From positions 1 to 40,723 of the forward strand of contig DATCLD010000084.1 of NCBI GenBank assembly GCA_036564115.1: DNA of 40,723 nucleotides, written 5' to 3'. Below are positions 26,820 through 40,578 of the stretch, one piece after another (the stretch's first letter is position 1; every line of letters starts with the position of its first letter). This stretch comes from Limnochordales bacterium (GTDB lineage: Bacteria; Bacillota; Limnochordia; Limnochordales; ZCTH02-B6). The notes under the pieces were generated by a model that was not told the origin of the DNA, searched no databases, and was given only the letters and a program-made list of their open reading frames with translations. The position numbers and the translations under genes were made by a program.

Positions 26820-26913
26820 TGTGCAAAAGCGGCGCTGATCGGCCTGTAGAGCCGTTCGCGGGCAGGACTTGTCCCCGGGGCCACGAACCCTTGTGGACGG
26901 GAGGTGCGTACGT

Positions 26914-29064
26914 GTGGGGCGAGGCCGCAAAATCGCCGCCACATTTTTGATGGCCTTGGGGCTGTTTAGCCTGCTCAGCCTGCACACCGGGGCCACCGGC
27001 GAAGCGGGCCGCTACTTGTCGGCCTGGCTGCGGACGGCGAGCGGGCAGGCGGCCACCGGGATCGGGCTCATCGTCATCTGGCTAGGCTGGGCGCTGTTCC
27101 GCCGCCCGTGGGATCTGGAGGTGGCGCGCCGGCTGGGCGGTTGTCTGCTCATTTTGTCGGTGGCCGCCGCGGCGCTTCATGTCGTACAGCTCGGTCCCGG
27201 AGCGTGGCCGGCGGTCTGGAGCGTGCAGGAACAAGTGCGCACGCCCATCGCCATGCAGGCGGGGGGCGTTTTGGGCGGCGCGCTGGCCGCCGTATTGATG
27301 CGGACCCTGGGCCCGTTGGGGACGGCCCTGGCCGTTCTTGCCATGACGGTGGTGGCGTGGCTGCTCCTGTTTGACACCTTCGCGGGCGATTGGCTGTCGT
27401 GGGCGGCCTATGGCGTGTCCGGCCTCGGGGAGCGGATACGGGCGGCACGGCGCGCCCGCAGCGAGCGGCGCCGGGTCCGGGCGGTGCGCATCGCCGAGGA
27501 GCCCGCAGCGGCCCGGGAAAGCGCTGTCCCAAAAGCCGAGGCGCCCCGGCCCATGACCCTCGTGACGGTTGAGGAAGAGCCTGAGGGCGCCCGTGCCAAA
27601 CCTCGCCGCCGCAGCCAAGAACAACCGGCACCACCGCCCGGGGCCGCAGGCGACTACCAGATCCCGCCGATCTCCCTGCTGAGCCGGCCGCGGCCTCCCA
27701 AGCGGCCGCGGACCGGGGAGGAAGAGGACCAGGCGCAGTTGCTTGAGGAGACGCTGGCCAGTTTCGGCATCCAGGCGCGGGTCGTGAGCATCAGCCGCGG
27801 GCCAGTCATCACCCGCTATGAAGTGCAGCCGCCCCCGGGGATCAAGGTGAGCCGCATCGTCGGGCTGGCCGACGACATTTCCCTGGCCCTCGCAGCCGCA
27901 GGGGTGCGGGTGGAGGCGCCGGTGCCTGGCAAGTCGGTGGTGGGCATCGAGGTGCCCAACCGGGAGACGAGCCCGGTGTTCTTGCGGGAGATTCTCGAGA
28001 CCGACGAGTTCCAGACGGCGCCGTCGCGGCTCACCATCGGACTCGGTAAGGACATCGCCGGGAAGCCCTTGATCGCCGACCTGACGAAGCTGCTGCACCT
28101 GCTCATCGCCGGGGCGACGGGATCGGGCAAGAGCGTCTGCCTCAACAGCATCATTGCGAGCCTCCTGTTCAAGGCCCGGCCCGATGAGGTCAAAATGATG
28201 ATGATCGACCCCAAGCGGGTCGAGCTGTCGGTCTACGACGGCATCCCGCACTTGATCGCGCCGGTCGTCACCGACCCGCGTCAGGCGGCGGGTGCCCTGC
28301 GCTGGGCGGTCAAGGAGATGGAGCGCCGGTACCAGCTTTTGTCGCAGACCGGGGCCCGCAACATCGATGCCTACAACAAGAGCACCCGCAAGCCGGAAGG
28401 GGCCGATCCGTTCCTGCCTTACCTCGTGGTCATCATCGACGAGCTGGCCGACTTGATGCTGGTGGCCGCGGCGGACGTGGAGGACAGCATCTGCCGGCTC
28501 GCACAGATGGCTCGGGCGGCTGGCATCTACCTGATCATCGCCACCCAGCGCCCGTCGGTGGACGTCATCACGGGCCTGATCAAGGCCAACGTGCCGTCGC
28601 GCATCGCGTTTGCCGTCAGCTCCCAGGTGGACTCCCGGACGATCCTGGACATGGCCGGGGCCGAGCGGCTGTTGGGCAAGGGCGATATGCTGTTTTACCC
28701 CATTGGGGCTCCGAAACCGATCCGGGCCCAGGGCGCCTGGATTTCGGATCAGGAAGTGGAAGCGTTGGCCGACGCCTGGCGCAACCAAGGCGAGCCGCAG
28801 TACATTGAAGAGGTGCTGACGACGCCGGCCCAAGGCGCTGGTCTCGATGAGGAGATGGAGGACGAGTTGTACGAGGACGCGGTGCGCCTTGTGCGGGAGG
28901 CGGGACAGGCGTCGGTCTCCATGCTGCAGCGGCGGTTTCGCATCGGGTACTCCCGCGCGGCGCGCCTCATCGACATGATGGAGATGCGGGGCGTCGTCGG
29001 CCCCTACCAGGGCAGCAAGCCCAGGGAGGTGATCGGCGCCGATGGTGGACTACGGCAGCGGTGA
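26914..29064 (+). CDS. ftsK: DNA translocase FtsK/SpoIIIE
   Basis: Four N-terminal TM helices, a Pro/Arg-rich linker, a motor domain with Walker A GATGSGKS and Walker [11 protein letters not shown], and a C-terminal gamma winged helix ([24 protein letters not shown]). GTG at 26914 has a GGGAGGTG SD; TTG 26869 is the alternative. Confidence 0.9.
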
Positions 29065-29953
29065 TCATGGCGACCACCTGGTGCAGGCCCTGTTGGCTGA
29101 CGGGCAAGTGCGGGCGATGGCGGCGGTCACGACCCGCACCGTCGAAGAGGCCCGCTGGCGGCATGATTTGTACCCGACGGCCGCGGCAGCCCTCGGGCGC
29201 ACGTTGACGGTGACCGCTATTTTGGGAGCAATGCTCAAGGCGCCCCAGAAGGTGTATGTGGAGATCGTGTGCGATGGTCCCATCAAGGCGGTGCACACCC
29301 AGGCGGACGCCGAGGGGCGGGTGCGGGGGTATGTGGGCAATCCCCACGTGGACCTGCCGGCCAATGCCCGGGGCAAGCTGGACGTGGCCGGGGCCGTCGG
29401 CCACGGCACGTTGTACGTCATACGGGACCTGGGCCTCCGGGAGCCTTACCGGGGCTTCGTGCCGCTGGTGAGCGGCGAGATCGGCGAGGACTTCGCCCAC
29501 TACTTCCTCCGCTCCGAACAGACCCCGTCGGTGGTCGCCGTCGGGGTGCTGGTGGACCCGGATCACCGGGTGCGGGCAGCAGGGGGGCTCTTGCTGCAGG
29601 TGATGCCCGGGGCCAGGGAGGAGGTCATCTCCGTCCTCGAGCAGCGGGCCCGCGAACTCCCGCCCATCTCATCAGCCGTTGACAATGGGAAGGACGCGGA
29701 GGGGCTTCTGGCCCTGGCCGCGGGCGACTTGGATGTGCGCGTGTTGCGGCGCCTACCGGTGCAGTTCAAGTGCAGCTGTTCCCGGGAGCGGTTTGAGCGG
29801 GCCCTCATCGCGCTGGGCGAGGAGGAGCTGCGGGACATCCTGGAAACCGACGGCTCCGCCGAGCTCGTCTGCCACTTCTGTTCCGAGGTGTACCGCTTTG
29901 ACGCCAAGGACCTCACGGCCCTGCTCAAGGCGGCGGCGCACCGGCAGCAGTAG
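29042..29953 (+). CDS. hslO: Redox-regulated chaperone Hsp33
   Basis: The C-terminal zinc centre CSCSRERF...[11 protein letters not shown] (CxC...CxxC) and the N-terminal [20 protein letters not shown] are present. It overlaps the ftsK 3' end by 23 nt. Confidence 0.9.
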
Positions 29954-29962
29954 TGGGGGAGG

Positions 29963-32752
29963 GTGGCAGCGGTGGCGACCGCCCGGCGTGTCATATGGAT
30001 CGCCCTAGGCGTCCTTGTGCTCTTGGCGGGGCTGACCGTCGCCTCGGCCCACCTGGTCACGGACTGGTGGTGGTTTCAAGAGCTCGGGCACGGCGGCCTG
30101 TTTGTGCGGCTGCTGGTGTGGCCGTGGGCGGTGCGCCTCGCGGCGGCGGCCTTATTTGCCGCGCTGATCTTCGGAAACCTGCTTGTTACCCGCGGGGCGT
30201 TGGCCCGGGCCATGTTCCGCTTCCAGGGCCGGGTGCCGGTCTTTTTGAGCTGGCGGGTCATGCGGCGGGTGCTGCTATTTGGCAGCGTGCTGCTGGGCCT
30301 GCTGTCCGCTGAACCGATCGCTCAGAACTGGCTCCTCATCGCCCGCTTTTGGCACAAGACCCCCTTTGGCGTCGCCGATCCGCTGTTTGGGCGGGACGTA
30401 AGCTTCTACGTCTTTGAGTTGCCCTTCTACCGGCTTGTGCACGGGTCGCTGGCGGGCATCCTCTTCCTGGCGGCCCTCATGGTACTCCTCGTGTATCTGC
30501 TGGCCCGGGCCGTCGAATGGCGCGGGAGGCAGGTGTTCTTGGACGAAGGCCCGCGCCGGCACCTTCTGATACTGGCGGCCGTCCTGGTGCTCCTGAAGGC
30601 GCTGGATTACCGCCTGAGCCTCTACGGTCTCCTGTTTTCCAGGACCAGCGACGTCATCTACGGTGCCACTTACACCGACTGGCACGCCCGCGCCTTGGCG
30701 CTCAAGGTGCTGTTTGTCGTGGCCCTGGCCTTCGCCGCGGTGCTGCTGGCTTCCTGGCGGCGGATTCGGTGGCGCTGGCTTGCCGGTGTGGGCGCGGTGT
30801 GGATGGCGGCGGCGGTGCTCCTCGGACAGGTTTATCCGGAAGGGCTGCAGCGCTTTGTCGTGGAGCCCAATGAGCTAGAGCGGGAACGGCCCTTCATCGA
30901 GCACCACCTGGCCTTCACTCGGCTGGCCTATGGTCTTGACGCCATCGAAGAACAGCTCTTTGTGGTCGACAACGAGTTGACCTGGGAAGGGCTGGCCAAG
31001 CACGCGCACATCCTCGACAACGCGCGCCTGTGGGACTGGCGGCCGCTGGCCCGCAGCTACGCGCAGCTGCAGTCCATCCGGTTCTACTACACGTTCCCCG
31101 ATGTGGACGTGGACCGCTACGTGGTCAACGGCCAGCTGCGCCAGGTGATGCTGGCCGTGCGGGAGCTGGACTTGAGCCAAATCCCAAATCGCACCTGGGT
31201 CAACCAGCACCTGCAGTACACCCACGGCTACGGGCTCGTCATGAGCCCGGTGGCGGAGGTGACGCCCCAGGGCCTGCCCAGGTTTCTCCTGGCCGACATC
31301 CCGCCCCGGCCGCGGGATGTGGACCTGGTCGTGACGCGGCCTGAAATCTACTACGGCGAGCTCACCAACCACTACGTGGTCGTGGGGACGCGCACACCCG
31401 ACTTTGAGTTCAGCTATCCGTCGGGGGACGACAACGTGCGCACCACCTACCGGGGTACGGGCGGGGTGCCGCTGCATTCCTTTTTCCGGCGGGCTGCGTT
31501 CGCGGCCCGTTTCCAGACCATCAACCTGCTGCTCTCCGACGAGATCACGAGCACGACCCGCATCTTGTTCCGCCGCAACATCACGGAGCGCCTGCAGACG
31601 CTCGCGCCGTTCCTGCGGTTTGACAGCGACCCATACGCCGTGCTGGCCGACGGGCGGCTGTTCTGGATCGTTGACGCCTATACGACGACGCTGGGCTTCC
31701 CATACGCCATGCCGCATGCCCGCTGGCAGGCCAATTACGTGCGCAACGCGGTCAAGGCCGTCGTGGACGCGTACAATGGCACGGTACACTTCTACGTCTT
31801 CGCGCCCGAGGATCCGCTGATCCGGGCGTATATGGGGCTGTTTCCCGGGCTGTTTGAGCCGGCGGAGGCGATGCCTGAGTCCCTGCAGGCACATGTGCGC
31901 TATCCGGAGGACCTCTTCCAGTTGCAGGCCGAGGTGCTGTCCCTCTACCACATGGACAACCCGACGGTGTTCTACAACCGCGAGGACGTGTGGCGTCCTG
32001 CCCGGGAGGTGTTCAGCACCGACGCGTCCGGTCAAACACGGGAGCAGGTGATGAGCCCCTATTACGCCATCGTGCAGCTGCCCGACCGTGCGGAGCCGGA
32101 AATGGTGCTCATGCTGCCCTTTACACCGACCGAGCGCAACAACATGATCGCTTGGTTCGCGGCCCGCATGGACGGTGACAACTACGGGCGGCTGCTTTTG
32201 TACGAGTTTCCCAAGGATGTGCTGATCTATGGGCCCATGCAAATCGAGGCCCGCATCGACCAGCACCCCGACATCTCGCAGTTGTTGACCTTGTGGGCGC
32301 AGCGGGGCTCGCAGGTGATCCGCGGCAACATGCTCGTGTTGCCGGTCGAGCGGAGCCTGTTGTACCTCAAGCCCATCTATCTCCAGGCGGAAACCGGCGA
32401 TCTGCCGGAGTTGGTGCGGGTCATTGCGGCCTTCGGTGACCAGATCGCCATGCACCCGACCCTCATGGGGGCGCTCCGGGCCGTGCTGCCGGGAGGGACG
32501 GCGGCCGGGCCTTCGGAAGCCGGGCCGGGTTCTCCCGCTTTGTCGCCGGAGCCCGGGGCGGCGACGGAAGCTGAGGAGGCCCCTGGGCCGGTCGCGGCGG
32601 CGAATGAATTCTCGCTCAAGCAGCTGGCGGCGGAAGCGCTGCGCCTTTATGATGAGGCCCAGGCCCGCCTTGCGCAAGGAGACTGGGCCGGCTACGGCGC
32701 GGCGCTGGAGCAGCTGGAGCTTATCCTGCGGCAGCTGGCAGCCGAGCCGTAA
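29963..32752 (+). CDS. UPF0182-family large membrane protein (929 aa)
   Basis: Seven or so N-terminal TM helices are followed by a large soluble domain. The size and motifs such as WWFQELG, FYVF.LPFY, YGELTNHYVV and LLYLKPIYLQAE match my recollection of UPF0182. Not searched. Confidence 0.75.
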   Translation: MAAVATARRVIWIALGVLVLLAGLTVASAHLVTDWWWFQELGHGGLFVRLLVWPWAVRLAAAALFAALIFGNLLVTRGALARAMFRFQGRVPVFLSWRVMRRVLLFGSVLLGLLSAEPIAQNWLLIARFWHKTPFGVADPLFGRDVSFYVFELPFYRLVHGSLAGILFLAALMVLLVYLLARAVEWRGRQVFLDEGPRRHLLILAAVLVLLKALDYRLSLYGLLFSRTSDVIYGATYTDWHARALALKVLFVVALAFAAVLLASWRRIRWRWLAGVGAVWMAAAVLLGQVYPEGLQRFVVEPNELERERPFIEHHLAFTRLAYGLDAIEEQLFVVDNELTWEGLAKHAHILDNARLWDWRPLARSYAQLQSIRFYYTFPDVDVDRYVVNGQLRQVMLAVRELDLSQIPNRTWVNQHLQYTHGYGLVMSPVAEVTPQGLPRFLLADIPPRPRDVDLVVTRPEIYYGELTNHYVVVGTRTPDFEFSYPSGDDNVRTTYRGTGGVPLHSFFRRAAFAARFQTINLLLSDEITSTTRILFRRNITERLQTLAPFLRFDSDPYAVLADGRLFWIVDAYTTTLGFPYAMPHARWQANYVRNAVKAVVDAYNGTVHFYVFAPEDPLIRAYMGLFPGLFEPAEAMPESLQAHVRYPEDLFQLQAEVLSLYHMDNPTVFYNREDVWRPAREVFSTDASGQTREQVMSPYYAIVQLPDRAEPEMVLMLPFTPTERNNMIAWFAARMDGDNYGRLLLYEFPKDVLIYGPMQIEARIDQHPDISQLLTLWAQRGSQVIRGNMLVLPVERSLLYLKPIYLQAETGDLPELVRVIAAFGDQIAMHPTLMGALRAVLPGGTAAGPSEAGPGSPALSPEPGAATEAEEAPGPVAAANEFSLKQLAAEALRLYDEAQARLAQGDWAGYGAALEQLELILRQLAAEP

Positions 32753-32766
32753 TCGGGAGAGGCTTG

Positions 32767-32796
32767 GCATAGGCCGTCCCCTCTGGGAATATAGAT
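32767..32796 (+). promoter_or_regulatory. Candidate sporulation-sigma promoter upstream of spoIIP
   Basis: GCATA (32767-32771) is a perfect -35 core for the sigmaE/sigmaF/sigmaG classes. An AT-rich GGGAATATAGAT (32785-32796) follows 13-16 nt downstream; AATATAGA fits the sigmaE -10 at only 4/8. The same GGAATATAG string precedes ylmC. Confidence 0.25.
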
Positions 32797-32812
32797 CGTC
32801 CCGAAAGGGGAG

Positions 32813-33709
32813 ATGGCCGTGACACGCTGGAACAGAGGCAGACTGCCGCGGTTTCCCAAAGCCACGTCGTCCAATGGGCCGAGCCTGTTGTTCATCCTGG
32901 TGGCGCTGATCGCCGTCGCGGTGGCGGGCGCCCGGCTTTTAGGCTTTGGGCCCGGGCAAGGCGCGCAAACGGCGCAGACCCGCATCACACCTCCGAGTCA
33001 GCAGGGGACTGCTCCGTTGCCACAAGCGCCTCCGGCTCCGCAGACCCCGCAAATCCCACAAACCCCACCCGCGTCCATGCAGGCACCGTCAACTGCGGCC
33101 CGGCCCACCGTGCTGGTGTACCACTCCCATGGGACGGAAAAGTACGGCCCGGGCGACACCCATGCCGCCCAAGGACGCCCAGGCGACATCGTCGAGGTAG
33201 GCGAGGCCTTCAGCGAATCCCTGGAGGCGCGGGGCATTACGGCTATCCACCACACGCAGGTGTACGACCATCCCCGGTGGGCCGAAGCGTTCCAGCGGGC
33301 CGGCCAGGCCGTGGGCAGCCTGCTCCAGCAGAACGACGGCGTCCAAGCGGTAATCGACATCCACCGGGACGCCATCGCCCGGGACGTGGGCCGGGAAGTG
33401 ACGACCGCCAACATCGGCGGGCGGCCGGTGGCCCGCATACTCCTTGTCGTGGGGGAGCAGAACAACCCGTATGCCCGTGAGAATACGGCCTTTGCCGAGG
33501 CCTTGAAGGCCAAGATGGACGCCCTGTACCCTGGGCTGTCCCGGGGCATCCGCATCCAGCCGTCCGACTACAACGGCCGCCTGCACCCCAACTCGGTGCA
33601 AGTGTTCATCGGCGACCATCGCTACAACACGGTCGAGGAGGCCCGGGAAGCGGCCCGCCTATTCGCCCACGTGGTGGCCGAGGTGCTACGCGAACGAGGC
33701 GGCGTCTAA
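32813..33709 (+). CDS. spoIIP: Stage II sporulation protein P (SpoIIP amidase/endopeptidase)
   Basis: N-terminal TM anchor, a low-complexity Pro/Gln linker, then VLVYHSHGTEKY...IDIHRDA...ILLVVGEQNNPY...N...L..G.R, which matches the SpoIIP catalytic domain pattern (IYHTHxxESY...DIHRD). The start is ATG 32813 or GTG 32819. Confidence 0.8.
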   Translation: MAVTRWNRGRLPRFPKATSSNGPSLLFILVALIAVAVAGARLLGFGPGQGAQTAQTRITPPSQQGTAPLPQAPPAPQTPQIPQTPPASMQAPSTAARPTVLVYHSHGTEKYGPGDTHAAQGRPGDIVEVGEAFSESLEARGITAIHHTQVYDHPRWAEAFQRAGQAVGSLLQQNDGVQAVIDIHRDAIARDVGREVTTANIGGRPVARILLVVGEQNNPYARENTAFAEALKAKMDALYPGLSRGIRIQPSDYNGRLHPNSVQVFIGDHRYNTVEEAREAARLFAHVVAEVLRERGGV

Positions 33710-33783: not shown

Positions 33784-35466
33784 GTGGAAATCGCGTTTCG
33801 CAACGATCATGAGGCGGTCCTGGACGCGCTGGCCCAGGGCCGCTTTGAACCGTGGCGCTGGTTTGAGCTGCGGGTGCGGGCCGAGCGGCTGGCCCTCACC
33901 CAGGGATTTGAGCGCCTGTTGTGCCTGGAAGGCCTGCGGATTGAACTCTACGATCACCAGCGCGCAGCCGTCCTCCGGGTGCTGCGGGACATGCGGGGCC
34001 GGGCGCTGCTTGCCGACGAGGTGGGCCTGGGCAAGACCATCGAGGCCGGGGTGATTCTCAAGGAATACATGCTCCGCGGCCTCGCCCGCAAGGCGCTGAT
34101 CCTCGCACCCGCATCGCTCTTGACCCAGTGGCAGCAGGAGTTGACCGAGAAACTCGGCATCCCCGCCCGCATCAACCGCTCCGCAGACAACTGGCACCGG
34201 TGGGACTGCGTCATCACCTCACTGGATACGGCGCGCCGAGCGCCGCACGCCGACCGGATCCGTGCGATCCCGTGGGACATGGTCATCGTGGACGAGGCTC
34301 ACCGCCTGAAAAACCGCCACACGGTCAGCTGGCGCTTCGTGGACGGGTTGACCAAGAAGTACCTGCTGCTTCTGACCGCAACGCCCATCCAAAACGACCT
34401 GACGGAGCTCTACAACATGTTCACCCTGCTTAAGCCCGGTCTCTTGCGCACCTACTCCTCGTTTAGGCGGGAATTCATGCTGGACAAGCGCTCCGCTAAA
34501 GATCCCGGGCGGCTGCGGGAGCGCCTGGGCGAAGTGATGGTGCGTTCCACCCGTCGCGACGCCCTCCTGAGGCTGCCCAGGCGCGTGGTGGAAACCGTGC
34601 CCGTCCCCTTGTCCGGGGCAGAGGAAGCCTTTTACCAGGATGTGTTGGCCTTTGCCCGGGCCTTGCACCAGCGCGGCAGGGCGGCCGGGGAGCGGGTCTT
34701 GCCGCTCATCCTGCTGTTGCGGGAGCTGTGCAGCAGCCCCCACGCCGCCTGCCGCACCTTGGCAGTGATGGCGCGCAGCGACCGCTTGGAGCCGGACGAA
34801 AGAGACTGGGCGCGCGCCTTGGCCGAGCAGGCCTGCGCCATAGCCGTAAGTGCCCGGAAGTTGGCCGCGGCGGAACGTTGGATCGCCGCGCAGGGTGAGC
34901 CGGTACTGGTGTTCACCGAGTTTCGTGCCACCCAGACCGCCTTGGCTGAGCGCTTGGCGGCCTTGGGCCTGATTGTGACCGTTTTTCACGGAGGGTTAAC
35001 CCGAGAGGAGCGGTCGGCGGCCGTGGACCGCTTCCGGCAAGCAGGCGGCGTCCTCATCAGCACCGAGGCCGGCGGGGAGGGGCAGAACCTGCAGTTTTGC
35101 CGGGTGGTGCTCAACTACGATCTGCCGTGGAACCCCATGCGGGTCGAGCAGCGCATCGGACGGGTGCACCGCCTTGGACAGACGCGCGACGTCCGCATTG
35201 TCAACCTGATCACTCCCGGCACGATCGACGAGCATGTCTACCGGCTGCTGCACGAGAAGATTCGCCTCTTCCAGCAGGTCATCGGGGATCTGGACCTCAT
35301 CCTGGCCGAGGAACCGCGGCTTGAGCGGACCGTGGGGCGCCTGGTGCTGGAGGCGCCCGACGAACAGACGCTCCTGACAGGTCTTGCCGCCGTCGGCCGG
35401 CGCCTCGAGCGGGCCCGGCAGCGCTGGGAAGCCGTTCAGCGCCACAACGAGGAGGTGCTCGCTTGA
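33784..35466 (+). CDS. SNF2-family (RapA/HepA/YqhH-like) ATPase-translocase, 560 aa (module 1)
   Basis: Motif I LADEVGLGKTIEAG, motif II VDEAHRLKN, motif III LLLTATPIQNDLTELYN and the helicase-C motifs STEAGGEGQNLQ and NYDLPWNPMRVEQRIGRVHRLGQTR are present. GTG start has a GGGGAGGG SD. The size is close to B. subtilis YqhH (about 557 aa, from memory). Confidence 0.9.
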   Translation: MEIAFRNDHEAVLDALAQGRFEPWRWFELRVRAERLALTQGFERLLCLEGLRIELYDHQRAAVLRVLRDMRGRALLADEVGLGKTIEAGVILKEYMLRGLARKALILAPASLLTQWQQELTEKLGIPARINRSADNWHRWDCVITSLDTARRAPHADRIRAIPWDMVIVDEAHRLKNRHTVSWRFVDGLTKKYLLLLTATPIQNDLTELYNMFTLLKPGLLRTYSSFRREFMLDKRSAKDPGRLRERLGEVMVRSTRRDALLRLPRRVVETVPVPLSGAEEAFYQDVLAFARALHQRGRAAGERVLPLILLLRELCSSPHAACRTLAVMARSDRLEPDERDWARALAEQACAIAVSARKLAAAERWIAAQGEPVLVFTEFRATQTALAERLAALGLIVTVFHGGLTREERSAAVDRFRQAGGVLISTEAGGEGQNLQFCRVVLNYDLPWNPMRVEQRIGRVHRLGQTRDVRIVNLITPGTIDEHVYRLLHEKIRLFQQVIGDLDLILAEEPRLERTVGRLVLEAPDEQTLLTGLAAVGRRLERARQRWEAVQRHNEEVLA

Positions 35467-36827
35467 GGGCCGGCGCCTTCGTCCAAAGGGCGTTTGACCA
35501 TCACGCCGCCGTCGAGGCGCTGCTGAGCGACTACCGCCGCTGGGGCGGCGACGATCCAGCAGGGGTCGAGACGGCCGACGCTGTCATCCAAGCGTGCCGG
35601 CGGCGGGGGATGGCGGCGAACGTCTTGCATCCCCTCGCCTGTGACCTGGATTTCGCCCGCGCCGTCGTCGAAAACGGCGTCGAGCCGGCGGTGGACGGAG
35701 CCTTGCGCTTGCCGGGCGCCTGCGGCCACCCGGCGGTAGCGGCCATGGCGGAGGTTTTCGGACGGATCCATTTCCTCAACGCCCACTGCCGTGAGCTGGG
35801 GCGCCGACTGCTGCTCCAGCGCCAGCTGCTCTTTTGCTTTAAGGTGGTGTACCGGTCCGATGAGGCCCAGGAGGAATTGGTCTCGGTGCTCGTCGACCCG
35901 CTGACCGAGGAGGCGGCTCCGGTGCCGGGCCTCGCTGGGGCCGTAGACATCGGGCTTGACGCGGGCGCGGCCTGGCAGGGGTACGCCCTGAAGCGGCTGT
36001 ACCGGAGCGCTTGCGGGCACCTGGAGCGATTGGTAACAGCCCGGGGCCGCCGGCTGGAGCTGGCAGCCCAGCGGCGCCTGGAGCGGGATATGGTACGGCT
36101 TGAAGAATATTACCAGGCGCTGCGGGAGGAAGCCCTCGAACCGCTAGCCCGCGAGCTGCACCGGCTGGAGGCGGCCCGCAACCGGGCGCGGCTTTGGCGT
36201 GCCATCGGCATGCAGGACGACGCCACGCCGGTGGAGCCGCATAAGGGCAACGGCGGTCAGTCGCAAGCCGCGACGGATCGGGAACTGGCCGCCCTCGAAG
36301 CCAGGGTGCGGGAGGTGCTGGCCGCTCTCGCCGCCGACCGGGAACGGCGCATACAGGAGCTCAAGGAGAAGTACACCGTGCGGGCGGAAGCGGCGCTGGT
36401 GGCGGCGGCCAGTGTCTGGACACCCCGCGTCGAGGTGCGGGTCAAGCTGACGGGCCCGAGCCGGCGGGAAGTTACCTTCTTCTATGACGCTATCCGCGGC
36501 CGCTGCCTCGACCTTGCCTGCGATGCGTGCCAAGCGCCGCTCACGCAGGTTTACCTGTGCACCGAGGGGGAGCTCGTTTGCCCGCTGTGCTTCGCGCCGT
36601 GCGCCGCCTGCGGGAAGGCCCTCTGCGTCAGCTGCACCTCTCAACGCTGCCATCTGTGCGACGCACCGCTTTGCGGCAGCTGCGACACGACCTGCCCGCT
36701 GGCAGGGCCGCTGGCGGCCGCAGGGACAATCTCCCTGGACCCGAGGCCCATCCGGCATGTTTGCCCCGCCTGCCGGGAACGCACCTGCGGGGCGTGCGCC
36801 GTGTTGGCGCAGGTGTTAGCCGTGTAG
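35463..36827 (+). CDS. Uncharacterised SNF2-partner protein, 454 aa: YqhG-like core plus coiled-coil insert plus Cys-rich (8 x CxxC) tail (module 1)
   Basis: TTG at 35463 overlaps the helicase stop (TTGA), with GGAGG 7 nt upstream, which implies translational coupling. The core is collinear with the module-2 partner. Residues 347-454 contain 19 Cys. No enzymatic motif was recognised. Confidence 0.7.
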   Translation: MRAGAFVQRAFDHHAAVEALLSDYRRWGGDDPAGVETADAVIQACRRRGMAANVLHPLACDLDFARAVVENGVEPAVDGALRLPGACGHPAVAAMAEVFGRIHFLNAHCRELGRRLLLQRQLLFCFKVVYRSDEAQEELVSVLVDPLTEEAAPVPGLAGAVDIGLDAGAAWQGYALKRLYRSACGHLERLVTARGRRLELAAQRRLERDMVRLEEYYQALREEALEPLARELHRLEAARNRARLWRAIGMQDDATPVEPHKGNGGQSQAATDRELAALEARVREVLAALAADRERRIQELKEKYTVRAEAALVAAASVWTPRVEVRVKLTGPSRREVTFFYDAIRGRCLDLACDACQAPLTQVYLCTEGELVCPLCFAPCAACGKALCVSCTSQRCHLCDAPLCGSCDTTCPLAGPLAAAGTISLDPRPIRHVCPACRERTCGACAVLAQVLAV

Positions 36828-36874
36828 GGCGGTGCAGCAGGGGCGGGCGGCAAAGGAGATCGGCCGCGTGCGCC

Positions 36875-36907
36875 GAACCCCTGGTTGATCGATACGGGAA
36901 GGGGTTC
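36875..36907 (+). promoter_or_regulatory. Hairpin occluding the SD of the gamma-CA-family gene
   Basis: GAACCCCT (36875-36882) pairs with AGGGGTTC (36900-36907) across a 17-nt loop. The 3' arm overlaps the GGGAAGGGG SD, 5 nt before ATG 36912. Confidence 0.3.
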
Positions 36908-36911
36908 TGGC

Positions 36912-37433
36912 ATGGTCCGTTCCTTAGGCGGGCGGGAACCAAAGCGGGGAGCCCGCGTCTTTATCGCCGACAACGCGCAAATTATCGGAGACGTCGAATT
37001 AGCCGACGGCGTCAGCATTTGGTTCGGCGCCATCCTGCGGGGGGACATCGAGCCCATCCGCATCGGCGAAGACAGCAACGTCCAGGATGGCGTCATCATG
37101 CACACCGATGAGGGCTATCCGGTCGAAGTGGGCAAGCGGGTCACCATCGGGCACGCCGCGGTCATCCACGGCGCGGTGGTGGAGGACGAGGCCCTGATCG
37201 GCATGGGCGCCATCCTGCTGTCGGGTTCCCGCGTCGGGCGCGGCGCGGTCGTGGCGGCGGGGGCGCTTGTGCCCGAGCGCGCCACGATCCCGCCGGGGGT
37301 GCTGGCCATGGGCGTGCCCGCCCGCGTCGTCAGGCCCCTGACGGCGGAGGACCACGCCCGCATCATGCGGGGTGTAGAAAACTACCGCCTGCGGCGGGAC
37401 CGCTACCTGGCCGAAGGATTCGGCATCAGCTAA
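36912..37433 (+). CDS. Gamma-carbonic-anhydrase-family / left-handed beta-helix (hexapeptide repeat) protein, 173 aa
   Basis: [29 protein letters not shown]...[14 protein letters not shown]...[14 protein letters not shown] is the YrdA/PaaY/gamma-CA pattern, including the His ligands. ATG at 36912 has an SD; track start 36885 was trimmed. Confidence 0.85.
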
Positions 37434-37439
37434 GCCCGG

Positions 37440-38372
37440 CTATTCCGGCGAATCCTGAACCGGATTGCCCGGCTGAACCGGATTGCCCGGCTGAACAGGA
37501 TCGCCCGGCGCCGGCCGCTCCCATACCGGGTTATATAGGCGGCCGGAGCGCCCCCGCACAAGGGGGATGTACAGCAGCGTCGCGGCTTCGGCCCGCGCCC
37601 GGACATGGGGGCGGGCCAGGGTTTCCAGCTCCCGCATGCGCATGCGCCCGGCGGTTTCCACTGCACCGGCTTCGTCATGGTCCAGCGCCGCCCGGCAATA
37701 GCTGTACAATTCCTCGAGTTCCCGCTCAAGCCGCATGCGGGCCGCTCGCAGCCAGCCTGCGTCCTGCTCTCGGACCGCCCGTGCCAGGGCGTCGACAGCC
37801 CGCTCGTGCGCCTGGCCCAGGGAGAGACGCGGCGGCTCGGCGGGCGTCCCGTCGCCCTGCGGGATGAGGCGCCAGCGGGCCGGGTCGGCGGGCGTGACGG
37901 CGAAGGCGTCGCCGGTCACCAGGTCAACGGCCACCGGGACGAGCTTTTCCTGCGGCGCGTAGCCCACGTAGGCCACGAGGAAGTGGAAGATGAGGTAGGG
38001 CCGGTCCAGCGTGGCCCGCACGCCCGGTGGGCGCACCCAGGCCCTGCCCAGCCGGCCAAGCTGCAAGGCAACCGAAACGAGCTGCTCCAGGCGCCAGCTA
38101 CCGGCTGTCACCAATTCGGCCGCTTCGGTTTCCTGGTCAAACGAGAAAGCCAGATACATCGCCGCCCGCGGCTTAGGCAACGGGGAAGGCGGGAAGGAAG
38201 GCGCGAAGCGACGGCCTTCCAAAAGCGCCAGCTGCTCCGGGTCCAGCTCCACCCGTACCGCGTCGGCCGCCGGCTCGATGCGGGCGCCCAACTGCGCGAG
38301 CACCCCAAGCGCGAACTCCTTTACGGTCACCCGCTCCCCTGTCAGGGGAGCGGCCAGGGAATCGCTATCCAT
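37440..38372 (-). CDS. Uncharacterised YqhG-like SNF2-partner protein, 310 aa (module 2)
   Basis: It starts 12 nt after the module-2 helicase stop, with no SD. The N-terminus (VKEFALGVLAQLGARIEP..VRVEL), the middle (GSWRLEQLVSVALQLGRLGRAWVRP; YLIFHFLVAYVGY..EKLVPVAVDLVTG) and the RLERELEELYSY segment resemble my recollection of B. subtilis YqhG (Pfam YqhG family). Not searched. The C-terminus is a PG(D/N)PVQ x3 repeat. Confidence 0.7.
   Translation of the reverse strand: MDSDSLAAPLTGERVTVKEFALGVLAQLGARIEPAADAVRVELDPEQLALLEGRRFAPSFPPSPLPKPRAAMYLAFSFDQETEAAELVTAGSWRLEQLVSVALQLGRLGRAWVRPPGVRATLDRPYLIFHFLVAYVGYAPQEKLVPVAVDLVTGDAFAVTPADPARWRLIPQGDGTPAEPPRLSLGQAHERAVDALARAVREQDAGWLRAARMRLERELEELYSYCRAALDHDEAGAVETAGRMRMRELETLARPHVRARAEAATLLYIPLVRGRSGRLYNPVWERPAPGDPVQPGNPVQPGNPVQDSPE
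37455..37508. repeat. 3 x 18-bp tandem repeat inside the 3' end of the module-2 partner gene
   Basis: ctgaaccggattgcccgg occurs twice perfectly (37455-37472, 37473-37490), followed by ctgaacaggatcgcccgg (37491-37508, 2 mismatches). On the minus strand it encodes PGDPVQ-PGNPVQ-PGNPVQ. Confidence 0.9.
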
Positions 38373-38384
38373 GCGGGAGATCCA

Positions 38385-40310
38385 TCACCCCAAGATGCGG
38401 TCCAAGAGCTCGGCGCCACGACCGGCGGCTCGCGCCGCATGCACTTGCGCCGCTAGAGAATCCAGGCGCGCCTTTGCCTCGTCTGGACTTGCGCTGTCCA
38501 GGACGATGTCGGCGATGGCCTGTTCAAAGGAGCGATCCATGGCGAGGCGGGCCAGCACCGCATCCACATCGCCCAGGACGGCTTGGAACATGTTCAGCTT
38601 CTCGTGCAGGAGATAGAGGATGTACTCCTCGATGGTGTCTCGGGTCGCCAGATTGTGGATGTGCACTTCCCGGGTCTGTCCCAGGCGGTGCACCCGCCCG
38701 ATGCGCTGCTCAAGCCGCATGGGGTTCCAGGGGAGATCGTAGTTGACCACACGCCGACAAAACTGGAAGTTGAGCCCCTCGCCGCCGGCTTCGGTGCTGA
38801 CGAGCACCTGCGCCCGATGTCGGAAGAGCTGGCGGGTCCACTCCTTCTTGGACGCTGACATGGAGCCGTCAAAACCCAGCGCCGGGATGCCCGCCTGCTC
38901 CAGCCGCCAAAGAAGGTATTGCTGCGTCGCCCGGAACTCCGTGAACACGATAACCTGCTCGCCGGTTTCGCCTATCAGCTCGAGCAGCCGGTCGCACTTG
39001 GAGCTGACGCTGGCTAGGCTCTCCCCGAGGTCCAATAGCTCGCTGAGCCGCGCTTTATCGTCCGTGTCCTGCGCCCGCTGCAAAAGGACCAGGAGCGTCT
39101 CCAGAGCGGCCGGCACGCTGCTGACGAGCTCCCGCTGGAGCGTGATGAGGGGCAGTATGCCGGCTTGCCCGCGGCGGCGGTACTCCTCTCTGAGAAACCC
39201 GGTGACCGCGTCGTAAAACTGCCGCTCGGGTGGACTCAGTTCCACCGGGAGGGCGTGCACACGGCGGGGCGGAAACTCGATGGTGTGGGGACCCCGGCGG
39301 TTGCGGATCAGGCACGTGCGCAAGATGGCGCGCAGGGTGCCGGTGTCCCTGGGGGTGCGCTTGTCCAGCATGAACCGCTGCTGGAACTGCCGGTACGTGC
39401 CCAATGTCCCAGGCCAGAGAAGCGTGACCAGGTTGTACAGCTCCCGCAGGTCGTTTTGCACGGGCGTGGCGGTCAAAAGCAGGCAATAACGGCGCCGGAT
39501 CTGGCTCACCAGCCGCCAGTTGGCGGTGCGGGCGTTTTTGAGCTTGTGGGCTTCATCGACGATCAAAAGGTCGTATTCCAGGCCGAGAATGATGTCGCAG
39601 TGGGGCGGGCGTTTGGCGGTATCCAAGGAGGCAATGACCACCGCGCAACGCTCCCAGTCGTACTCGCTGCGCTGCAGGGCGGCGGTGATGCCGAACTTCT
39701 CTTTGAGCTCCCAGTACCACTGCCAGGTCAGGGAGGCCGGGGCGAGAATGAGCGCTCGCCGCACGAGCCGCCGCAGCATGTACTCTTTGAGGATCATGCC
39801 GGCCTCGATGGTCTTGCCCAGGCCGACTTCGTCGGCCAAGATGGCGCGCCCGTGCATGTCGCCGATGACCCGGCGGCATGTGGCCAGCTGATACGGGTAC
39901 GGCACCAGTCCCACTTGCCGCCAGCGCTCGCGGCAATGATCCTCGATGAGCAGCCGGTCAAGCCCGGGCCGAACCTCGAAGGCCAAGGCGGCCAAGGCCA
40001 GCCGGTGCTGTTCCCAGGTCGACCACGCCGCGGACTGCATGCACCGCGCGAGCTCAAGCAAGGCACTCTCCGAGGCCAATACCTCCGCGTCTCCGTCGCG
40101 CCGCGGCGGCAGGAAGCGCTCATCCACAGGCGCCGGGCCCCACGCCCCGGCCGCACTTTGGCCCAAGATGGGGACGTCGACGGGAAACGTCTTTAGGGGC
40201 AGCTTGAAACTGTGCAACCGCAAGGCCTCCCTGGCAAACGAGGCGGGATTCGTCGCCGGCCAGCAATCGTCGCCTGCTAGTGTAACCAGCCGTCCAGACG
40301 TCAACTCCAT
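38385..40310 (-). CDS. SNF2-family (RapA/HepA/YqhH-like) ATPase-translocase, up to 641 aa (module 2)
   Basis: It is a paralogue of 33784..35466, sharing LADEVGLGKTIEAG, LILAPASL, VDEAHKLKN, LLLTATPVQNDLRELYN, FTEFRATQ, STEAGGEGLNFQ and NYDLPWNPMRLEQRIGRVHRLGQTR. It has about 80 extra N-terminal residues. The start is uncertain: ATG 40310 has no SD, whereas in-frame TTG 40217 has AGGGAGG 8 nt upstream. Confidence 0.9.
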   Translation of the reverse strand: MELTSGRLVTLAGDDCWPATNPASFAREALRLHSFKLPLKTFPVDVPILGQSAAGAWGPAPVDERFLPPRRDGDAEVLASESALLELARCMQSAAWSTWEQHRLALAALAFEVRPGLDRLLIEDHCRERWRQVGLVPYPYQLATCRRVIGDMHGRAILADEVGLGKTIEAGMILKEYMLRRLVRRALILAPASLTWQWYWELKEKFGITAALQRSEYDWERCAVVIASLDTAKRPPHCDIILGLEYDLLIVDEAHKLKNARTANWRLVSQIRRRYCLLLTATPVQNDLRELYNLVTLLWPGTLGTYRQFQQRFMLDKRTPRDTGTLRAILRTCLIRNRRGPHTIEFPPRRVHALPVELSPPERQFYDAVTGFLREEYRRRGQAGILPLITLQRELVSSVPAALETLLVLLQRAQDTDDKARLSELLDLGESLASVSSKCDRLLELIGETGEQVIVFTEFRATQQYLLWRLEQAGIPALGFDGSMSASKKEWTRQLFRHRAQVLVSTEAGGEGLNFQFCRRVVNYDLPWNPMRLEQRIGRVHRLGQTREVHIHNLATRDTIEEYILYLLHEKLNMFQAVLGDVDAVLARLAMDRSFEQAIADIVLDSASPDEAKARLDSLAAQVHAARAAGRGAELLDRILG

Positions 40311-40311
40311 A

Positions 40312-40340
40312 TGGACAGCGTGGGGAGGGGATGGTATAAT
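40312..40340 (+). promoter_or_regulatory. SigmaA-type promoter of tRNA-Ala (extended -10)
   Basis: TGGACA (40312-40317), a 17-nt spacer and TGgTATAAT (TG at 40332-40333, TATAAT at 40335-40340). The predicted start is about 7 nt before the mature tRNA 5' end. Confidence 0.65.
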
Positions 40341-40353
40341 ACGAAAGCGGCAG

Positions 40354-40429
40354 GGGCCTGTAGCTCAGCTGGGAGAGCGCTGCACTCGCATTGCAGAGGT
40401 CGGCGGTTCGAGTCCGCTCAGGTCCACCA
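40354..40429 (+). tRNA. tRNA-Ala (anticodon CGC), 76 nt with encoded CCA
   Basis: Hand-folded cloverleaf. The acceptor GGGCCTG/CAGGTCC includes the G3:U70 alanine identity pair. The D arm is GCTC-AGCTGGGA-GAGC. The anticodon stem CTGCA/TGCAG has loop CTCGCAT (anticodon CGC). The T arm is GGCGG-TTCGAGT-CCGCT, with discriminator A and CCA. Confidence 0.95.
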
Positions 40430-40436
40430 ACAGCAG

Positions 40437-40471
40437 AACCCCTACGGACCGGTGGTCCGAAGGGGTTTTTT
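40437..40471 (+). terminator. Rho-independent terminator after tRNA-Ala
   Basis: aacccct-a-cggacc...ggtccg-a-aggggtt forms a stem of about 13 bp with one A/A mismatch, followed by a T tract through 40471. Confidence 0.8.
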
Positions 40472-40514
40472 CATGCCTTCGTGCGTGCCGCACCGCTGCG
40501 GGAACGGGCACACT

Positions 40515-40578
40515 GGGCTATTCGCACCAGTACCTTGGGCTATTCGCCCATCACTTTGGACTATTCGCCCATCACCTT
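40515..40578. repeat. Three tandem 21-22-nt repeats spanning the stop codon of the YjbQ-like gene
   Basis: Units are gggctattcgcaccagtacctt (40515-40536), gggctattcgcccatcacttt (40537-40557) and ggactattcgcccatcacctt (40558-40578). On the minus strand, units 3 and 2 both read K-V-M-G-E-stop. Confidence 0.85.

Follow-up and report, generated by a model that had tools for sequence, protein, structure and literature searches.

Two convergent Snf2-YqhG modules of a Limnochordales genome, each of which looks like RapA split into two polypeptides

Contig DATCLD010000084.1 of a Limnochordales bacterium (assembly GCA_036564115.1), whose whole 40,723-nucleotide (nt) stretch is referred to below as the window, carries two gene pairs that point at each other. 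Each pair encodes a Snf2-type ATPase, here called the motor (H1 or H2), and a partner protein resembling the YqhG family (P1 or P2); H1 and P1 make up module 1, and H2 and P2 make up module 2. The earlier note on this DNA had read the locus as a duplicated and diverged two-component Snf2 system whose YqhG-like partner probably targets or regulates the motor. That reading is supported by the family membership of the partners and by the adjacency of motor and partner, which holds in 91 of 92 cases surveyed. Each motor-partner pair also looks like the Escherichia coli protein RapA split into two polypeptides and lacking the Tudor N-terminal domain (NTD). All five open reading frames (ORFs) of the locus were located where the note had placed them, with the junctions, overlaps and shared motifs that it had described:

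33784-35466, + strand: H1, short Snf2/Swi2 ATPase of 560 amino acids (aa), motor of module 1
35463-36827, + strand: P1, partner of 454 aa assigned to the YqhG family as a divergent member, TTG start
36885-37433, + strand: hexapeptide-repeat gene resembling gamma carbonic anhydrase (γ-CA), 182 aa, located between the modules
37440-38372, - strand: P2, partner of 310 aa assigned to the YqhG family, canonical type
38385-40310, - strand: H2, Snf2/Swi2 ATPase of 641 aa, motor of module 2

The start codon of P1, a TTG at 35463, shares the tetranucleotide TTGA with the stop of H1, and a GGAGG at 35451-35455 lies 7 nt ahead of it. In module 2, the H2 stop is followed by a 12-nt gap without a Shine-Dalgarno sequence and then by the ATG of P2. 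The modules converge as described, with 6 nt between the stops of the γ-CA-like gene (37433) and P2 (37440). Both partner frames have the codon-position composition of the neighbouring genes, with a G+C content at third positions (GC3) of 0.81-0.83 and the order GC3 > GC1 > GC2, and conserved homologues exist for both.

H1 and H2 are Swi2/Snf2 ATPases of superfamily 2 by their domain content, both lobes scoring above the Pfam gathering scores. The SNF2-rel_dom domain was matched at E = 3.8e-41 (141.5 bits) in H1 and E = 1.4e-32 (113.5 bits) in H2, and the Helicase_C domain at E = 5.2e-22 (78.6 bits) and E = 3.7e-24 (85.5 bits), respectively. Their alignment contains Walker A (GLGKT), DEAH and motif VI (QRIGRVHRLGQ), and the proposed paralogy of the two is borne out by 49% identity across 516 aa (BLASTP E = 5e-149). 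In a neighbour-joining tree computed without bootstrap, the helicases with P1-type partners (H1 and five others) were monophyletic. H2 grouped instead with the YqhH proteins of Limnochordia and other Bacillota, to which it is 48-56% identical, versus 45% to H1; the H1-H2 distance (45% identity) is about that of either motor to Paenibacillus YqhH (46-49%). H2 therefore appears to be the orthologue of canonical Bacillota YqhH, and H1 to belong to a clade of helicases that are always paired with a partner bearing a Cys-rich tail.

When P1 and P2 were scanned against Pfam, NCBIfam and PADLOC, the only match was that of P2 to Pfam YqhG (PF11079), which fell below threshold (E = 2.4e-4, 20.6 bits, gathering score 25); P1 had none. 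Seven of eight close relatives of P2 likewise match Pfam YqhG weakly, the best at E = 1.6e-5. An exhaustive search of representative sequences with a P2-family profile recovered 218 clusters, and 112 of the 121 full-length relatives sampled from it were positive for Pfam YqhG, with a best E value of 2.3e-121. A YqhG hidden Markov model (HMM) built from these relatives, with no P1-family member among them, matched P1 at E = 3e-16 over HMM positions 118-289. Because the relatives of P2 are PF11079-positive and the P1-free model finds P1, both partners are best classified as divergent YqhG-family proteins. Direct comparison of the two agrees with this. P1 and P2 match each other by BLASTP at E = 7e-5, and their family profiles align over 122 columns with an hhalign probability of 95.9% (E = 5.8e-9). 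Their Smith-Waterman score of 87 compares with a mean of 40.6 (standard deviation 6.4) for shuffled sequences (z = 7.3), none of 1000 shuffles equalling it, and z rises to 10.4 when the test is confined to the β-core. The homologous core that the earlier note had seen in the two partners is thus not a product of chance, and P1 and P2 are genuine, though distant, homologues.

The architecture of the partners was examined in AlphaFold2 (AF2) models and compared with that of RapA. Following its helicase core, RapA has a degenerate α+β domain resembling a restriction endonuclease (REase), the "Spacer", and then a C-terminal domain (CTD) consisting of a five-stranded antiparallel sheet into which a pair of long coiled-coil helices is inserted between strands 4 and 5 (PMC12839542). 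The boundaries of Spacer and CTD used here come from the papers cited in this text and from the present alignments. The following domains and tails were delineated in the partners:

35760-36497, + strand: P1 core, about aa 100-345, β-sheet plus long two-helix coiled-coil insert, RapA CTD-like
36510-36803, + strand: P1 Cys-rich tail with eight knuckles of the CxxC type, about aa 350-447
37455-37508, - strand: P2 tail with three copies of PG(D/N)PVQ, aa 289-306, lineage-specific and predicted to be disordered
37530-38045, - strand: P2 C-terminal domain, aa 110-281, RapA CTD-like topology according to the secondary structure of the model
38058-38372, - strand: P2 N-terminal α+β domain, aa 1-105, counterpart of the RapA Spacer according to the secondary structure of the model

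The P2 model has a mean predicted local distance difference test (pLDDT) score of 80.4 and a predicted template modelling (pTM) score of 0.74. Its C-terminal domain is modelled as strands (E) and helices (H) at E110-113, E122-136, E141-150, E156-158, H185-203, H205-231, H235-252 and E256-273, that is, four strands, long coiled-coil helices and a fifth strand. The secondary-structure order of P2 as a whole is that of RapA Spacer plus CTD as described in PMC12839542, and P1 has the sheet and coiled-coil part. A Foldseek search of the PDB with the P2 model returned exactly four significant matches, all of them E. coli RapA (8spg, 6bog_A, 8t0l_F and 8so8; E = 1.4e-5 to 3.6e-5, probability 1.00, 278-285 columns), and the next match had an E value of 0.31. 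Two of the four RapA entries are N-terminally truncated, so the match is not to the RapA NTD. On the strength of the predicted fold, P2 looks like a structural equivalent of RapA Spacer plus CTD. Several other YqhG proteins (P0089, P0101, P0105, P0134-P0136 and P0142) have 100-240 additional aa inserted between the Spacer-like N-terminal and CTD-like domains.

Of the YqhG family domain, P1 (model pLDDT 76) retains just the C-terminal two-thirds. Conservation and model confidence are both low in its N-terminal ~100 residues, and the region matched by the YqhG HMM is the P1 core, with modelled elements at E108-131, E135-144, E151-154, H173-247, H264-303, E307-330 and E334-342. The coiled-coil helices are longer than those of P2 in the models. 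The two partners have diverged at their ends as had been noted, and the tails differ in their conservation. In the Cys-rich tail of P1, 19 Cys and 1 His are invariant across 10 homologues; these include C353, C356, C373, C376, C380, C383, C396, H397 and C399, followed by C404, C407, C411, C434, C437, C442, C445 and others. The tail probably forms a cluster of about four zinc sites. It matches no Pfam family significantly (Trm112p and B-box appear faintly, at E ~0.05). The PG(D/N)PVQ tail of P2, by comparison, is not conserved: it is confined to this genome, relatives having unrelated tails or none, and P2 residues 293-310 have pLDDT values below 50. In P1, most of the Spacer-like domain is gone and a conserved Cys tail has been added. 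A further YqhG protein, the 662-aa P0156, is encoded by low-GC DNA and has a P1-type core (match to the P1-family profile A1 at E = 1e-60), and in its tail, much longer than that of P1, a knuckle of the form C-x2-C...C-x2-H/C is repeated about ten times, with 57 Cys in all. The subtype with a Cys tail is therefore not confined to Limnochordia, and its repeat number varies.

The motors and the partner family can be laid end to end on RapA. Residues 14-499 of H1 align to RapA 113-635, and the remaining 61 residues of H1 would reach to about RapA 697, both motors ending near RapA residue 700; the Snf2 cores of H1 and H2 are 28-30% identical to that of RapA and collinear with it. In a Pfam scan, RapA itself has two Tudor domains at 3-118 (Tudor_1_RapA and Tudor_RapA) and RapA_C at 605-965. 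Neither Tudor family was matched by H1 or H2, and RapA_C was matched by no protein of the window. The NCBIfam RapA model NF003426 scored 200.7 bits with H1 and 195 bits with H2, over the core only (cutoff 576). For the partner side, YqhG 10-104 aligns to RapA 711-792 with a weak hhalign E value of 0.004, YqhG 193-228 aligns to RapA 888-923 on the same diagonal (E = 0.13), and a global alignment of YqhG 1-276 with RapA 691-968 ends at the RapA C-terminus. The hhalign E value for YqhG was 0.054 against the single RapA sequence and 0.004 against a five-sequence RapA_C profile; the latter was drawn from misfiled chromosomes in PLSDB, and the result is used as support for collinearity only. Since H1 extends to about 697 and YqhG aligns from 691, motor plus partner is collinear with RapA 113-968, split at about 691-697. 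The modules of the window differ from RapA in consisting of two polypeptides without a tandem Tudor NTD, and P1 differs further in its Cys cluster and in the loss of most of the Spacer-like domain. The predicted fold of P2, an α+β domain followed by a sheet with a coiled-coil insert, matches RapA alone in the PDB.

The distribution of the pair was surveyed by a helicase-alignment scan of one genome per GTDB species, which gave 80 loci (L numbers below). These were searched as six-frame translations with HMMs, and helicases were counted if at least 900 nt of downstream sequence was available. Within Bacillota, they belong to Paenibacillaceae, Brevibacillus, Cohnella, Alicyclobacillus, Thermoactinomyces, Limnochordia and further lineages represented by metagenome-assembled genomes (MAGs), and beyond Bacillota to MAGs of Riflebacteria, Eisenbacteria and Thermoplasmata. 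Adjacency proved nearly universal: a YqhG-like ORF lies immediately downstream on the same strand of 91 of the 92 YqhH-type helicases. The order is helicase then partner throughout, Bacillales included, which does not support the earlier note's statement that yqhG precedes yqhH in Bacillus subtilis; the published chromosomal order there is yqhH, yqhG, sinI/R (PMC6123443). Stop and start overlap by exactly 4 nt at 44 of 86 junctions; an overlap of any kind is seen at 61, and at 80 the two genes are no more than 30 nt apart. Helicase and partner are, to judge from these junctions, translationally coupled. In the Paenibacillaceae and other Bacillales sampled, the pair behaves as a single-copy core gene pair.

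Some loci stand apart in this survey. The sole helicase without a detectable downstream partner is that of L040 (Eisenbacteria). The pairs outside Bacillota are L081, L083 and L087 (Thermoplasmata MAGs, archaeal), L017 and L040 (Eisenbacteria) and L015, L064, L066, L067, L069 and L079 (Riflebacteria/Ozemobacteraceae); they could reflect horizontal transfer or bin contamination. In P0154, a 283-aa fragment, the C-terminus of a YqhH-type helicase (E = 3e-49) runs into a YqhG N-terminus (E = 3e-50), possibly a natural gene fusion or else an assembly or frameshift artefact.

The doubled, convergent H1-P1/P2-H2 layout recurs in L001-L007, in L010 (a distant Limnochordia genome) and in L014 (a Bacillota MAG). 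Within L001-L007, P1 is only 47-63% identical to that of the window. Each doubled locus has one Cys-tailed and one canonical partner, and helicase clade and partner type co-vary. From the grouping of the helicases in the tree and the H1-H2 identities, motor and partner have diverged together, and the second module is either old or acquired. H2-P2 is accordingly best viewed as the canonical, vertically inherited Bacillota module, and H1-P1 as a separate clade that has co-diverged. The nearest GTDB genome, 'Firmicutes bacterium ZCTH02-B6' (LZRQ01; L009 and L045), has the modules on separate short contigs, with identities to the window of 84% for H1, 88% for H2 and 97% for the γ-CA-like protein. 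Partner identity, comparison with shuffled sequences, adjacency outside this genome and the coding signal of the partner frames were the points at which the earlier note had said its reading might fail; all were examined, and none went against it.

One further element of module 2 lies in the N-terminal extension of H2:

40164-40208, - strand: motif FKLPLKTFPVDVPIL, aa 35-49 of H2, of the form (F/L)KLPLKTFPVxVPIL...F.PP

The motif is kept in the window, L003 and L004/L005 and is absent from the H2-type copy of L010; possibly it serves as a linear motif for interaction. No Pfam family matches the extension, and the idea that the extension is a Tudor domain was rejected for want of Pfam support.

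The gene between the modules matches Pfam Hexapep (E = 1.7e-15) and reaches 170 bits with the NCBIfam gamma carbonic anhydrase model NF050158, whose cutoff is 250. It appears to be a member of the γ-CA/PaaY/CaiE family. The earlier note implied that it belonged to the arrangement, and this did not hold. Only close relatives (L001-L007 and L045) have the gene between their modules; L010, L014 and all single-module loci lack it, on which grounds a part in the system was rejected; it is probably incidental. With 78-97% identity in relatives versus 47-83% for P1, it is far more constrained than the flanking partner genes.

The remaining surroundings are core chromosome genes of cell division, sporulation and, elsewhere, glycine cleavage, and there is no defence island. 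Neighbours in the window are FtsA, FtsZ, a sigma70-family factor, SpoIIR, FtsK/SpoIIIE, Hsp33, UPF0182 and SpoIIP. The block from FtsK/SpoIIIE through Hsp33 and UPF0182 to SpoIIP (26869-33709, + strand) sits upstream of H1 and is syntenic in all Limnochordia-like relatives examined (L001, L004, L006 and L010), and the SpoIIP-H1 adjacency is kept in relatives. In Alicyclobacillus, Thermoactinomyces and Brevibacillus the pair adjoins gcvT/gcvPA. On the far side of the locus, a tRNA-Ala(CGC) gene at 40354-40429 (+ strand) diverges from H2; a -10 element resembling TGGTATAAT lies ahead of it at about 40331-40339, and behind it, at 40431-40475, a GC-rich hairpin and a run of T have the look of an intrinsic terminator. 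Just past this terminator, at about 40506-40575 (+ strand), three imperfect direct copies of a ~20-nt unit were sighted in the raw sequence, reading GGGCTATTCGC[A/C]CC... / GGACTATTCGCCCATCAC[C/T]TTG.

How the modules might work can be framed by comparison with RapA. We put at roughly 60% the probability that each is a two-polypeptide RapA-type machine in which the partner supplies Spacer and CTD in trans and the substrate is most likely RNA polymerase (RNAP). The short motor (YqhH type; H1 and H2) would supply the ATPase core only, equivalent to about RapA 113-700, and the coupled partner of the YqhG family would supply in trans the region that RapA has in cis at about 691-968, Spacer and then CTD. 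The partner would dock on the lobes of its cognate motor and position or regulate it on the substrate, as the analogy with RapA suggests. This substrate would most likely be RNAP stalled or retained on DNA, to be remodelled or released at the expense of ATP. In RapA, Spacer residue D744 contacts K66 of the zinc-binding domain of β' (PMC8501970), in the nucleotide-bound post-termination complex the Spacer is wedged into the opened cleft of RNAP (bioRxiv 10.1101/2024.09.28.614012), and the CTD, the NTD and domain 1A form a cleft between them (PMC8501970). Regulation must differ from that of RapA, as the autoinhibitory and targeting Tudor NTD is absent from both modules. The domain loss, longer coiled coil and Cys cluster of the module 1 partner would point to a different target or state. 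By analogy, then, we infer that motor and partner form a physical complex, that RNAP is its substrate and that the two modules are functionally specialised.

The earlier note had left the role open among a RapA-like function, chromosome or forespore DNA handling, and nucleic-acid defence. The first is now favoured, since the P2 model matches only RapA in the PDB and motor plus partner are collinear with RapA 113-968, and defence is disfavoured by the housekeeping context. Several observations nevertheless weigh against a RapA-like machine acting on RNAP. Sequence similarity between YqhG and RapA_C is by itself not significant (hhalign E = 0.004-0.05, probability at most 8%), and an hmmsearch of PDB sequences with the YqhG profile gave no match. 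The best PDB match of the P1 model, again RapA, is not significant (E = 0.11), and both partner models were built on shallow alignments of 9-10 sequences. The Foldseek TM-scores between P2 and RapA are low, at 0.26-0.32 with a root-mean-square deviation of 13-15 Å, presumably due to differing domain orientations. The Tudor NTD, one of the main RNAP contacts in RapA, is missing from both modules, and RapA residues L216, V217 and L220, which grip the β flap-tip helix (PMC8501970), correspond to Q, Q and T in H1 and to Y, W and K in H2. A RapA homologue of full length, YwqA, exists separately in B. subtilis and is the one recovered with RNAP according to reviews (PMC10804225, PMC12448304). Finally, the phenotypes attributed to yqhH, sensitivity to ultraviolet light (UV) and to methyl methanesulfonate (MMS), also fit DNA repair (PMC10054049, PMC7385302). 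The absent Tudor NTD, the unconserved contact residues and the fact that YwqA already serves as the B. subtilis RapA homologue would suit a DNA-directed translocase of repair or of replication-transcription conflicts, one that remodels protein-DNA complexes or branched DNA at lesions, not RNAP. The RapA-like fold of the partner would then be a regulatory or adaptor scaffold and its degenerate REase-like domain a sensor of DNA structure. Consistent with this, truncation or knockout of yqhH has been linked to UV sensitivity in Bacillus thuringiensis (PMC10054049), B. subtilis ΔhepA(yqhH) lowers MMS survival under PcrA depletion (PMC7385302), and the ancestry of the partner's first domain is REase-like (PMC12839542). 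However, both phenotypes are also expected of a factor that clears stalled RNAP, neither partner shows a nuclease or repair motif in the Pfam, NCBIfam and PADLOC scans, and structurally the partner is related only to RapA, which is RNAP-associated, and, according to PMC12839542, to BrxHII. On balance we regard a repair translocase as rather unlikely.

BrxHII also brings anti-phage defence into consideration, in that the modules might be components related to the Snf2 helicases DrmD of DISARM, BrxHII of BREX or DpdE of Dpd. DrmD, BrxHI/II and DpdE are the best NCBIfam/PADLOC matches of H1 and H2, at 205-270 bits, but these scores lie far under the curated cutoffs (500-950) and reflect the generic Snf2 core only. 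BrxHII of type 3 BREX has a Snf2 core, an inactive REase-like (iREase) domain and a RapA-type CTD, and thus the C-terminal architecture of RapA (PMC12839542), and PADLOC BrxH models are among the best matches of both motors. It differs in being a single polypeptide with one Tudor domain inside a BREX operon, whereas the modules have a separate C-terminal-domain protein, no Tudor domain and no BREX genes. The duplication of the module and the fast evolution of one copy might be expected of a defence system. Against this, the partners match no PADLOC model, and no methyltransferase, PglZ, BrxC, DrmA/B/C or Dpd genes lie nearby. The neighbours are housekeeping genes of division, sporulation and glycine cleavage whose synteny is kept across families, and the pair behaves as single-copy and core in the Paenibacillaceae and other Bacillales sampled. 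A defence island was rejected on genomic context, and a defence role is highly improbable. The neighbourhood itself raises the further idea that the doubled modules serve sporulation-specific handling of the chromosome or forespore DNA, in view of FtsA, FtsZ, the sigma70-family factor of sporulation type, SpoIIR, FtsK/SpoIIIE and SpoIIP nearby and the maintained SpoIIP-H1 adjacency. A neighbourhood is weak evidence, however, and this one is not kept outside the lineage. In Bacillales the canonical pair adjoins gcvT/gcvPA or other unrelated genes, and homologous pairs occur in MAGs of Riflebacteria, Eisenbacteria and Thermoplasmata, groups that to our knowledge do not sporulate. A sporulation-specific role is therefore very unlikely.

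The adjacency of YqhH and YqhG, the Pfam family YqhG and the loose label 'HepA/RapA-like' for YqhH are already known; YqhH is a second Snf2 ATPase of Bacillota, and under the name 'HepA' the B. subtilis protein has been regarded as RapA-like and poorly characterised (PMC7385302). The pair in B. subtilis is the same as that described here and has the same helicase-to-partner order, H2-P2 falling in the canonical Bacillota lineage and the P2 family being tied to PF11079 by profile searches. The window differs in that P2 lies below the Pfam threshold, P1 has no match, an extra H1-P1 module is present, and the location is beside spoIIP and UPF0182, in contrast to gcvT and sinI there. In the literature accessible to the search, YqhG was found nowhere described as a stand-alone RapA Spacer plus CTD (a split RapA), and no mention was found of an additional, co-diverged module whose partner has a zinc cluster.

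The link between YqhG and RapA makes the pair a testable hypothesis, that of a two-subunit, Tudor-less RapA-like remodeller of RNAP or DNA. The RapA-type CTD fold, otherwise seen only in RapA and BrxHII (PMC12839542), would be extended to a widespread stand-alone protein. With the accessory domains on a separate polypeptide, control of the motor could be probed by simple mixing or deletion, and the Cys-cluster partner of the second module suggests that the accessory subunit may be an evolvable element of specificity. More tentatively, YqhH-YqhG might be an ancient "RapA in two pieces" with a swappable Spacer/CTD subunit, in which H1-P1 has been re-targeted by its zinc-cluster partner. If this were true, H1-P1 would act on another polymerase state or another nucleic-acid substrate, such as sporulation-specific holoenzymes or DNA, and the modules would provide a natural system for dissecting how the C-terminal domains of RapA control a Snf2 motor, as well as a function for the YqhG family.

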